A stretch of 64,000 nucleotides of DNA. Source: Phototrophicaceae bacterium (GTDB lineage Bacteria; Chloroflexota; Anaerolineae; Aggregatilineales; Phototrophicaceae). This document shows, one piece after another, positions 60,090-61,574 of this stretch. The stretch covers positions 3,156,810-3,220,809 of the forward strand of contig OZ251576.1 in NCBI GenBank assembly GCA_965243795.1, in the 5' to 3' direction. Position 1 is the first letter of the stretch. Each line of letters opens with the position of its first letter. Position numbers and translations under genes: made by a program. The notes below the pieces were generated by a model. That model ran no database searches, had not been told where the DNA came from, and worked only from the letters and a program-made list of their open reading frames with translations.

Positions 60090-61517
60090 TTATGAATCAT
60101 CCGCCGGCGGATTCTTCTCTAAGAATAACCTGATTTCTGGCGGGAACGGGACATGCCATCCGCCACGCCAAGGACCGAATATATTGCTTGCGCGATTAAT
60201 AAGGCTTAAAATTATCTCCGCAAGTTCTTGATCGTCTAATTGCCCATCCCAAAGCATATCTCTAAACTGTGTATCCTCAATTATTCTTTGCATAATAGAG
60301 ACTGTCCGTTCTCGGCGGTATCGTACAAAAAACGGATAAGGAATGTGACGGTCTCCCATACTGGTTTGGTCATAGACAAAGCGGATAAAATCAAACTGGC
60401 AAATACAATCTGCTATCTTTTCCTTATCATCTGAAAATTGTCGATAGAGGTAGCTGTTCTCCTTTCCGATGTTTATGGTATGCTTTAGGAATGTCATATA
60501 ATCAATTCTGGCATTTTCTGGCATATGCCGCATCCAAAACATTCCCTCTTGCATATACTGCATCCAAAACATTCCCTTATAATAAGAATCCCAGCTTATC
60601 GGTATCGGATGTTTCACAAAATCTGACATCCATTCATATTTACCCTCTTGTACAAGAATCGCGCCCAAGAGGTACAGCTTTGGCAAAAGATCAGCCCAAA
60701 TCCGAAGCGTTTCGTCGGCGTGCTTAGTATGTGGAGTGCGAAACCGCTCGTGTGCGTCCTTAAAAATAAGTTGCAGGGTTCGCAGAAATTCTTGATATAA
60801 CTCTAGTTGATCGTATCGAATAAAAACGACTCCAAAAATGATGATTTTGTCTATAAGTGCTTCGAGTATATCACCTTGTGATTCTTCTGTTTCTGATGCT
60901 TTATTCAAAAAGTAGTTCGGGAATTCACGCAAATACTTTTTAATCCGCAATACATTACCCGCTTCAAGCAATTCGAAAATATCATTCTCAAGTTCTTCCA
61001 ATGATTTATCCAGAATCTCATCAAGCTCCGTACGGGTGCCAAACTTATAACCTAGTTTTTTAAGCTCTTGCTCAATGAAGCCTATTCCTTTTCTCATATC
61101 ATCTCGAAAATCGCTCCCGCCTCGTACATGCGAACTTTGATAATCTAGTATCTCTTGAATTCCAGATGGCAGCTTGTCCTTCTTTGGCACGGGCGCATTC
61201 TTAATACAGATCGGAGCGATCATGATTCCTTTGTCTAAGGCTCGTTTGATCTCCTTTACCAGATAATCTGGCTCATCACTCTCGGATTTTTCTTTAAGCA
61301 AGTCAAGCCATTGAGGCCCAATAACGGCCACCAAAACATCTGATTCATCCACTTCTTTAATGATGTGTTCCTCAAAGCGCGTAAAATCTGGTATATCCAG
61401 GTCCATAAAAACATTTTCTTCCCCATAACGACCTACAAAATGATCGTACATTCGTCCGACGAAATCTGGTTCATCAACTCTGCGATAACTGATGAATATC
61501 TTGGGCTGCTGACTCAT
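60090..61517 (-). CDS. TIR-domain protein with an unknown C-terminal domain of about 330 aa
   Basis: AT-rich ORF. GGAGG lies 7 nt before ATG 61515-61517. The N-terminus is TIR_2-like: KIFISYRRVDEPDFVGRMYDHFVGRYGEENVFMDLD...DVLVAVIGPQWL...DYLVKEIKRAL. Confidence 0.8.
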   Translation of the reverse strand: MSQQPKIFISYRRVDEPDFVGRMYDHFVGRYGEENVFMDLDIPDFTRFEEHIIKEVDESDVLVAVIGPQWLDLLKEKSESDEPDYLVKEIKRALDKGIMIAPICIKNAPVPKKDKLPSGIQEILDYQSSHVRGGSDFRDDMRKGIGFIEQELKKLGYKFGTRTELDEILDKSLEELENDIFELLEAGNVLRIKKYLREFPNYFLNKASETEESQGDILEALIDKIIIFGVVFIRYDQLELYQEFLRTLQLIFKDAHERFRTPHTKHADETLRIWADLLPKLYLLGAILVQEGKYEWMSDFVKHPIPISWDSYYKGMFWMQYMQEGMFWMRHMPENARIDYMTFLKHTINIGKENSYLYRQFSDDKEKIADCICQFDFIRFVYDQTSMGDRHIPYPFFVRYRRERTVSIMQRIIEDTQFRDMLWDGQLDDQELAEIILSLINRASNIFGPWRGGWHVPFPPEIRLFLEKNPPADDS

Positions 61518-61574
61518 AGGCAAACCTCCGCGCCGCTGTAATTAGCTGTTTGGTTATCACAATAATAACCCGCT

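Follow-up and report, generated by a model that had tools for sequence, protein, structure and literature searches.

A solitary TIR gene in a Phototrophicaceae genome encodes a candidate single-polypeptide immune protein with an unannotated all-alpha C-terminal domain

Introduction

In Escherichia coli, protection from phages is provided by single proteins in which a TIR domain is fused to an accessory domain (transmembrane, AAA, TPR, DUF4238 and similar), and these proteins respond to specific proteins of the phage (Wang et al. 2024, PMC11350192). Prokaryotic Schlafen (pSlfn) nucleases are experimentally shown anti-phage effectors that are fused to diverse sensors, 17% of which are unannotated (Perez Taboada et al. 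2026, PMC13056530). Here we describe a TIR gene located between 60,090 bp and 61,517 bp (minus strand) of a 64,000 bp stretch of a Phototrophicaceae (Chloroflexota) genome (contig OZ251576.1, positions 3,156,810 to 3,220,809 of the forward strand), which is referred to as the window throughout. Its product has an N-terminal TIR domain and a C-terminal all-alpha domain. The explanation that we favour, at a probability of roughly 60%, is a single-polypeptide immune protein in which a new all-alpha domain, acting as sensor or regulator, controls an NADase effector of the SARM1-like TIR type.

Like the E. coli proteins, the window protein is one polypeptide that combines a catalytic-type TIR domain with a presumed recognition domain and has no partner gene. 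It differs from them in its accessory domain, which is an unannotated all-alpha domain, and in its host, a Chloroflexota metagenome-assembled genome (MAG); its gene occupies a fixed chromosomal slot, not a defence island. With the pSlfn proteins it shares a modular logic, and about half of the proteins that carry the alpha domain have an SLFN_AlbA_2 N-terminus. These alpha-domain Schlafen fusions probably fall among the 17% of pSlfn fusions with an unannotated domain; the alpha domain itself is not named in that paper (PMC13056530). As in pSlfn5, the putative sensor part is more variable than the effector part in the window family too. However, the window protein has a TIR domain and no Schlafen nuclease, and the sensor of pSlfn5 is an Ig-like beta-sandwich whereas the domain described here is all-alpha.

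The multi-component TIR systems are less similar. The profiles of the bacterial TIR proteins ThsB and ThcB4 of Thoeris weakly resemble the N-terminal half of the window TIR domain, but the best score, 23.8 bits, was far below the cut-off of 220, neither ThsA nor any other effector was found encoded nearby and the architecture is different. SPARTA TIR-APAZ proteins also fuse a TIR domain to a C-terminal regulatory domain, and SPARTA is activated by oligomerisation; unlike in SPARTA, there was no Argonaute gene near the window gene and the C-terminal domain is all-alpha, not APAZ. The TIR effectors of CBASS, Pycsar and type III CRISPR systems (TIR-STING, TIR-SAVED and PycTIR) differ in that the window protein gave no STING, SAVED or cyclic nucleotide monophosphate-binding match. 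Neither a cyclase gene nor a pAgo gene was found in the 64-kb window. Membership of Thoeris, CBASS/Pycsar, SPARTA, TIR-NLR and retron-TIR systems was rejected, as a search for the partner domains or genes that define them found none. By analogy, the window protein may instead work as do known defence proteins that carry effector and sensor in a single gene, such as pSlfn, single-gene Shedu and single-protein TIR systems. What is new is a sensor-like domain with no annotation or solved relative that is common to TIR, Schlafen, caspase and kinase proteins, together with the fixed slot, persistent AT-richness and mosaic, hyper-divergent alleles of this subfamily.

The TIR domain

The TIR domain lies between 61,113 bp and 61,505 bp (minus strand) and comprises residues ~5–135, numbered, as throughout unless the 477 amino acid ORF is stated, on the 475 amino acid protein. 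It matched Pfam TIR_2 (PF13676) with 35.7 bits against a gathering cut-off of 28, over residues 9–123 of the 477 amino acid ORF, which correspond to residues 7–121. A phmmer search of all PDB sequences returned only the TIR domains of SARM1 and TIR-1 (E about 3e-6). In this alignment the query sequence PKIFISYRR, in which FISYRR represents residues 8–13, was paired with PDVFISYRR of SARM1, and YLVKEIKRAL was paired with DWVHKEIVTAL. The catalytic glutamate of SARM1, which we take to be E642, lies inside the latter segment; Glu89 of the window protein (codon at 61,251 bp–61,253 bp, minus strand) occupies its position in a KEI, MEI or GEI context and was invariant in 16 of 16 full-length homologs. 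Both Glu89 and the (I/V)F(I)(S/N)YRR motif were retained in every full-length homolog, down to 34–37% identity, and about 70 further positions were invariant among homologs down to 34% identity.

A Foldseek search was also made with the AlphaFold model of the full-length protein. The top match was the SARM1 TIR domain (target-normalised TM 0.77, rmsd ~3.3 Å over ~147 columns), followed by SPARTA TIR-APAZ, for which the alignment covered ~160 residues and the TIR part only, and then by plant TIRs. The resemblance to SARM1 ends with this domain: SARM1 has ARM and SAM domains and forms an octameric ring, whereas the window protein has one unrelated alpha domain after the TIR domain and no SAM domain. 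PADLOC and NCBIfam profiles gave ThsB1 (22 bits over 69 residues) and ThcB4 of Thoeris type III (23.8 bits), respectively, for the TIR part, and PADLOC gave no match for the C-terminal part.

The Pfam score, the fold and the glutamate at the catalytic position place the window protein in the TIR superfamily. A first-pass annotation, made from the sequence of the window, had called a TIR_2-like domain with a candidate catalytic glutamate, and both calls are borne out, with catalysis itself a prediction from the alignment. By its sequence the domain looks like a catalytically competent NADase of the SARM1 type, an activity that is predicted on the same grounds.

The C-terminal domain

The alpha domain is encoded between 60,108 bp and 61,040 bp (minus strand; residues ~160–470) and is proposed to be a sensor or regulatory module. 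No match to the C-terminal ~310–330 amino acids was found in Pfam, NCBIfam, PADLOC or the PDB sequences, and a profile of the domain searched against the PDB sequences also gave no meaningful match. An AF2 model of the domain built from a diverse alignment of 28 sequences was a 16-helix bundle with a pLDDT of 89.8 and a pTM of 0.91. When this model was compared with the PDB using Foldseek, the best matches were designed armadillo and helical repeats (TM ≤ 0.37, E ≥ 0.01), and a comparison with BFVD revealed no structural neighbour. The Foldseek comparison that the first-pass annotation had proposed, run against these two databases, uncovered no real neighbour.

Several features of the domain were conserved across the family: the glycine of LGA, two tryptophans, CQFDF, a proline/phenylalanine pair and RT(E)P. 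The most conserved motif was the CQFD core (C373–D376; 60,390 bp–60,401 bp, minus strand), which reads CICQFDF here and LCQFDFLQC in the wider family. CQFD was invariant in the alignment of full-length homologs, and F375 and D376 were nearly invariant among 105 diverse members. A hypervariable, indel-rich loop of low pLDDT was located between 60,444 bp and 60,575 bp (minus strand; residues ~315–358). A short internal duplication (MFWMQYMQEGMFWMRHM) was seen within this loop (60,480 bp–60,530 bp, minus strand; residues ~330–346) in the window allele and in allele P0002, as opposed to all other alleles.

Distribution of the C-terminal domain

A 330-residue profile of the C-terminal domain was searched against 1.84 billion cluster representatives, with relatives counted at 50% clustering. 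This revealed 439 relatives at E ≤ 1e-3, 169 of them at E ≤ 1e-10. The domain had previously been described as unknown, which holds in so far as it has no annotation or PDB match, but it is not an orphan. The whole TIR plus alpha-domain architecture was common to about 17 proteins at recognisable identity. A word-index search with the diverse C-terminal profile added few new proteins and no names.

N-terminal partner domains were identified by a Pfam scan of 105 of the 439 relatives. SLFN_AlbA_2 was the most frequent (49 of the 105), followed by TIR_2 (19), TIR (8), ThsB_TIR (4) and caspase (2), and there was one relative each with a protein kinase, a ParA-like ATPase and an EAD7 N-terminus. 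The PADLOC profiles PDC-S50 and PDC-S66 were considered as labels for the C-terminal domain and rejected, since they map to the AlbA_2-like and TIR N-termini, respectively. About 20 proteins of ~285 amino acids consisted of the C-terminal domain with little or no N-terminal extension. At three metagenome loci (L030, L032 and L038; loci are designated by such labels throughout) the gene for the standalone domain overlapped the stop codon of an upstream gene of 217–259 amino acids, which was homologous to the Schlafen-type N-termini of the fused members (E 1e-43 to 1e-51). The occurrence of both fused and operon forms is strong evidence that the Schlafen-type and C-terminal modules work together. 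Thus, the alpha-domain module follows Schlafen, TIR, caspase and kinase domains in different proteins and also occurs in split form.

The neighbourhoods of relatives were analysed at 18 loci, at which 105 neighbour ORFs were found. For locus scanning a tighter alignment was used, the diverse one being too broad, and ORFs in the metagenome loci were called by a simple longest-ORF heuristic. These ORFs included four phage-type integrases and IS110, IS200 and DDE transposases. They also included two GmrSD and two LmuB-like (Lamassu) genes, PbeC, a type I specificity subunit, a type II methyltransferase, a type IV restriction enzyme and HEC-06. This association with defence genes and mobile elements is suggestive, the counts having no background statistic. 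One relative was located on a 60-kb Microbacterium plasmid, where it adjoined DUF3800 and MobF genes. A viral origin was considered too, but a search of the IMG/VR viral contigs with a narrow CQFDFLQ pattern found no relatives.

Reading frame and base composition of the TIR gene

The TIR gene begins at an ATG at 61,517 bp and ends with a stop codon at 60,092 bp–60,090 bp. The corresponding entry of the ORF list (60,090 bp–61,523 bp, minus strand) is 477 amino acids long when counted from a TTG codon; as all homologs begin with MSQQPKIF, the protein was taken to be 475 amino acids long. A Shine-Dalgarno-like GGAGG is located 7 nucleotides 5′ of the ATG (61,525 bp–61,529 bp, minus strand) and was kept in L001, L002, L003, L008 and L009. 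The start site that had been read from the window is therefore supported by the sequence and by the homologs. At least 16 intact full-length homologs were found, which, together with the length of the ORF for such AT-rich DNA, indicates that the reading frame is more than a chance occurrence.

The gene has the same extent as an AT-rich islet, with a GC content of 0.385–0.43 over 60.0 kb–61.6 kb compared to 0.59–0.63 on either side (0.41 overall, against a background of ~0.60). The GC3 of the TIR gene was 0.40 compared to 0.67–0.74 in neighbouring genes; the deficit was mainly synonymous, and GC1 and GC2 were lower too. The islet between the ALDH gene and the divergent gene that had been noticed by eye is thus confirmed by measurement. 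The TIR gene was AT-rich in all genomes examined (GC 0.37–0.44 compared to 0.52–0.62), and in each the dip was limited to the gene.

Allelic variation of the TIR gene

Pairwise dN, dS and omega were estimated with the NG86 method, the estimates being rough for AT-rich, recombining sequences. Omega of the TIR gene was 0.38–0.73 compared to 0.08–0.14 for ALDH and 0.06–0.11 for the exonuclease gene, and its non-synonymous evolution was 5–20 times faster than that of ALDH. Between L001 and L003, dN was 0.171 for the TIR gene and 0.008 for ALDH, and dS was 0.282 and 0.079, respectively. Non-synonymous peaks were located at residues ~105–130, in the hypervariable loop at ~315–358 (mean pairwise dN 0.41, amino acid identity 46%) and at ~427–469.

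Although L001, L003 and L008 come from one sample (ERZ26050812), they encode very different TIR alleles. Sliding identity between strains of one sample was 95–100% in the flanks, while the TIR gene was internally a patchwork; L003 and L008, for example, were 97–100% identical over the last ~300 columns of the gene and 71–88% identical elsewhere. Furthermore, the C-terminal tails (…PPxDDS, …NSRYYL and …NRRYF) were spread incongruently with overall similarity. The patchwork identity and the incongruent tails indicate, at the level of sequence comparison, that old TIR alleles have been shuffled by recombination. At 90% identity all clusters of the TIR protein were singletons, whereas clusters of the neighbouring 190 amino acid protein contained up to 25 sequences. 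Diversifying selection on the TIR gene appears plausible from these comparisons.

Chromosomal location

The first-pass annotation had called for the conservation of the neighbourhood to be examined, and the slot of the TIR gene proved to be conserved. The gene was present in the same slot in every related contig long enough to judge (L001, L003, L004, L005/L006, L008 and L009). One flank of the slot comprises an ORF11_beta-like gene (341–347 amino acids), the 190 amino acid gene, DUF4139 and polyphosphate kinase; the other is the ALDH/exonuclease III block. On the 2-kb contig L050 only the TIR gene and the ALDH gene directly downstream are visible; its TIR allele was 37% identical to that of the window, whereas the ALDH fragment was 77% identical.

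In most of the 3.3-Mb genomes (L001, L003, L004, L008 and L009) a MUG113/T5orf172-SH3_3 gene lies just upstream of the TIR gene, between it and the 190 amino acid gene. Its product is Pro/Thr-rich and probably envelope-associated. An alignment of the window (~61,524 bp–61,637 bp) with L003 (8520 bp–9911 bp) showed that this gene is cleanly absent from the window, as an indel of ~1.4 kb. In more distant Chloroflexota with genomes of 4.5–5.1 Mb the same block was found without a TIR gene; the slot there encoded a protein of the T5orf172/MUG113 type with native GC. In genomes that have no TIR gene, the MUG113 gene seems to have been in the slot ancestrally, and the most economical history would be that the AT-rich TIR gene was inserted beside or in place of an ancestral MUG113 gene, which the window genome later lost. 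A functional link between the MUG113-SH3_3 gene and the TIR gene gained no support: the former is absent from the window and from L005/L006, has native GC and gave only weak PADLOC matches (PDC-S57).

The genome of L003 contains a second copy of the TIR gene (L002, 9661 bp–11,900 bp), which arose through a 1.9-kb segmental duplication into a DUF3179 gene. The duplicated segment runs from ~235 bp before the end of the SH3_3 gene, through the spacer and the TIR gene, to ~120 bp into ALDH. This insertion leaves two open chimeric ORFs, one joining the DUF3179 N-terminus to the SH3_3 tail (508 amino acids) and the other joining the first ~40 ALDH codons to the DUF3179 C-terminus (145 amino acids). 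A discrete mobile element carrying the TIR gene was considered and gained no support, since the L002 copy includes fragments of both neighbours; no search was aimed at element ends such as terminal repeats. In a more distant 3.6-Mb genome (L005/L006, 10,001 bp–11,426 bp) the TIR gene was split into ORFs of 335 and 143 amino acids by a frameshift in the hypervariable loop, which was identical in two independent assemblies. The gene may be truly split or a pseudogene, or both assemblies may share a homopolymer error of the long reads.

Proposed function and alternative explanations

We propose that the window protein is a one-polypeptide, abortive-infection-type immune protein, in which the TIR domain would be the effector, predicted to cleave NAD+, and the C-terminal alpha domain of ~310 residues would be a portable module for sensing or regulation. 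At rest, this alpha domain would hold the TIR domains apart or inactive. An infection cue, most probably a protein of the phage or some other molecule associated with infection, would be sensed through the conserved CQFD, RTxP and tryptophan core, the loop at residues 315–358 and the variable C-terminal tail. Self-association would then create TIR–TIR contacts and composite active sites, as in SARM1, SPARTA and TIR-STING, and NAD+ depletion would cause the infected cell to halt growth or die before the phage cycle ends. We infer the NADase activity, the sensing by the alpha domain, the oligomerisation (by analogy with the systems just named) and the anti-phage outcome from the domain content and comparisons described above.

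The role assigned to the alpha domain follows from its distribution, as one domain is joined to four chemically unrelated effector-type domains and exists as a separate gene beside one of them. In other immune systems, domains of all four of these types serve as effectors. The N-terminal position can be read as that of the effector because the alpha domain is paired there with directly acting domains (Schlafen RNase, caspase and kinase).

Several observations weigh against this proposal. A single fixed slot in every related genome sampled is atypical for defence genes, which are sporadically distributed, and the window locus is a lone islet among housekeeping genes with no defence island. What is known of neighbourhoods concerns distant relatives, for the most part Schlafen fusions, and the counts carry no formal statistic of enrichment. 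An enzyme or a small-molecule binder, as opposed to a protein sensor, would also account for the polar motifs that are strongly conserved in the alpha domain. The AF2 model of the full-length protein was only moderately confident (pLDDT 69, with ~60–80 in the TIR part), and the PADLOC and NCBIfam matches to ThsB and ThcB4 were weak, sub-threshold and confined to the first ~70 residues of the TIR domain. Finally, positive selection was not detected, as windowed omega was ≤ 0.85 and never exceeded 1, and relaxed constraint could contribute to the fast evolution.

Four rival explanations were weighed, and in order of weight these are a Thoeris-like signalling role, a self/non-self role, an ALDH-linked role and a decaying gene. 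Many bacterial TIRs are signal producers, and the TIR domain could make a cyclic-ADPR-type or related signal for an effector encoded elsewhere in the genome. The best, though weak, profile matches being to ThsB1 and ThcB4 would fit such a role, as would the four relatives with ThsB_TIR-type domains. However, no ThsA-like, SIR2, SLOG or Macro gene was found in the 64-kb window, in any of the related loci of ~20 kb or beside the L002 copy, the same C-terminal domain is paired with directly acting Schlafen RNase, caspase and kinase domains, and the nearest TIRs by both sequence and fold are the NAD+-consuming SARM1 and SPARTA; we consider signalling improbable. Doubtful, too, is the suggestion that this is an allorecognition or kin-discrimination locus of filamentous Chloroflexota, comparable to fungal het genes, and not a phage sensor. 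TIR domains are death effectors in eukaryotic allorecognition and NLR systems, and a single conserved slot with alleles down to 37% identity beside ALDH genes at 77–98%, the very different alleles of the co-occurring strains of ERZ26050812, and a TIR-gene dS that exceeds flank dS in the closest pair, together with the mosaic structure, are signs of long-lived or exchanged alleles. Frequency-dependent selection by phages would account for the same polymorphism, though, and no cognate partner or ligand gene was evident at the locus. The relatives of the C-terminal domain in other phyla, on plasmids or by integrases and restriction genes and often in single copy, follow the pattern of phage defence, and the filamentous lifestyle of the MAG lineage is an assumption of the suggestion itself.

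An NAD-linked housekeeping or regulatory role, with co-expression of the downstream NAD-dependent ALDH, would be in keeping with the position of the TIR gene 37–60 nucleotides upstream of the 804 amino acid ALDH gene on the same strand in the window, L001, L003, L004, L008, L009 and L050, and with the prediction of no strong terminator between the two genes. We regard this as highly improbable, as synteny already largely refutes it: the two genes are non-adjacent in L005/L006, L048 and L049 have the ALDH block without any TIR gene, the L002 copy is located elsewhere and relatives of the domain occur in unrelated contexts. The TIR gene also differs from ALDH in composition (GC3 0.40 compared to 0.69) and in its much faster non-synonymous evolution. 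That the gene is a decaying horizontal acquisition, its fast evolution reflecting relaxed constraint, would be consistent with its AT-rich, foreign appearance, with an omega of 0.4–0.7 overall and up to 0.85 in some segments, and with the broken copy in L005/L006. Yet at least 15 alleles retain an intact frame of 460–485 amino acids in AT-rich DNA, omega is clearly below 1, the glutamate at the catalytic position is invariant along with the ~70 other positions noted above, and the gene persists at the locus across lineages whose ALDH dS ranges from 0.7 to more than 1.5, so that decay is very improbable.

A bolder version of the immune-protein proposal, which we put forward as speculation and think unlikely, is that the locus corresponds, in bacteria, to the R-gene loci of plants or the het loci of fungi. 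A fixed slot would then hold a TIR death effector with a hyper-polymorphic alpha receptor under balancing or frequency-dependent selection, specificity would reside in the loop at 315–358 and the C-terminal tail, and the alpha domain would be a general receptor for at least four effector classes. The AT-richness itself would be maintained, which may occur through low expression, silencing or escape from GC-biased conversion, the alleles being too divergent to recombine freely. The basis for this version is the presence of mosaic alleles down to 37% identity beside an ALDH gene at 77% over the available stretch.

If the alpha domain of the proposed immune protein is a sensor, then it is a new and fairly widespread receptor module, with 439 representatives at 50% clustering. 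Uncharacterised TIR fusions are numerous, but the window protein stands out in that it points to a reusable module. Current defence-finding tools miss these proteins because the alpha domain has no Pfam, NCBIfam or PADLOC entry. Swaps of the alpha domain or the discovery of its trigger would show how effectors of unrelated chemistry can be under the control of a single sensor fold. The Phototrophicaceae alleles constitute a natural experiment, with the same locus, near-identical flanks and very different alleles in one community, which should make the segments that determine specificity easy to map. The locus also suggests that an immune-type gene can keep one chromosomal position and stay compositionally foreign over long divergence.

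Neighbouring genes and upstream signals

The divergently transcribed ORF next to the TIR gene (61,575 bp–62,219 bp, plus strand) is 214 amino acids long. Its orthologs were all 189–190 amino acids in length and begin with MNI(R/Q)H, which corresponds to Met22 of the window ORF (61,638 bp), and translation probably starts at this codon. With this start the intergenic gap is ~120 bp and not the 57 bp previously given. The 190 amino acid family comprised 96 clusters and was limited to Chloroflexota-like genomes of 2.9–5.1 Mb; the ORF had no Pfam match, and a match to JetB was at chance level.

It had been suggested that the TIR gene is either a single-gene system with a novel sensor or one half of a two-gene system with this ORF. 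The first alternative gained comparative support from the recurring module, the invariant glutamate, the mobile-element and defence context of relatives and the fast, mosaic evolution, and the second was rejected. The 190 amino acid gene stays in place where the slot lacks a TIR gene, most related genomes have the MUG113 gene between it and the TIR gene, the L002 duplication did not include it, and it has native GC and an omega of about 0.2. It is a widespread flanking core gene and not a partner. Nor is it the sole neighbour, as had been stated, since the gene for a two-domain ALDH of 804 amino acids adjoins the TIR gene 54 nucleotides downstream on the same strand. The reported absence of an adjacent ThsA-like, SIR2, SLOG, Macro, CBASS or STING gene extends to the whole 64-kb window.

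Upstream of the TIR gene, a sigma-70-like promoter candidate (TTGATA-17-TATTAT; 61,562 bp–61,590 bp, minus strand) with 10 of 12 consensus matches was kept in sequence in the window, L001, L002 and L003. A palindrome (GGTTAT-N7-ATAACC; 61,552 bp–61,570 bp, minus strand), largely kept in L001, L002 and L003, overlaps the −10 box of this candidate and could be a putative operator, judging by its sequence and position.

Other variable regions

A second AT-rich islet was found elsewhere in the window. It comprises an ORF of 673 amino acids (24,217 bp–26,238 bp, minus strand; GC 0.40) and one of 172 amino acids (26,401 bp–26,919 bp, plus strand; GC 0.48) in a background of ~0.58. The 673 amino acid protein had no match in Pfam, PADLOC or the PDB sequences, and a comparison revealed no relation to the C-terminal domain of the TIR protein. 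It may be another foreign or defence-type singleton.

An alignment of the window (~55,220 bp–55,290 bp) with L003 (16,208 bp–17,895 bp) showed that a DUF4411 and Peptidase_M78 (ImmA/IrrE-like) pair is present in L001, L003, L008 and L009 and absent from the window and L004. The pair sits between the exonuclease III gene and a cyclophilin gene and represents an accessory indel of toxin-antitoxin or defence type. Additionally, near-identical strains differed ~8 kb from the TIR gene, where L001 (1096 bp–2238 bp) and L008 (102 bp–1244 bp) encode a Dam-type MethyltransfD12 gene and a 73 amino acid ORF, and L003 (1086 bp–2219 bp) encodes a DndB-family gene. This spot is a second variable, defence-like slot.

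The two sides of the TIR slot also differed in divergence. The 190 amino acid and ORF11_beta-like genes of the window (61,575 bp–64,000 bp) were ~72.5% identical to those of L001/L003 (6100 bp–8520 bp), with a dS of ~0.74–0.86, whereas on the other side the TIR, ALDH and exonuclease III genes were 91–93% identical to those of L001/L003, with a dS of ~0.2. This jump at the TIR slot suggests a recombination breakpoint or very different histories of the two flanks.

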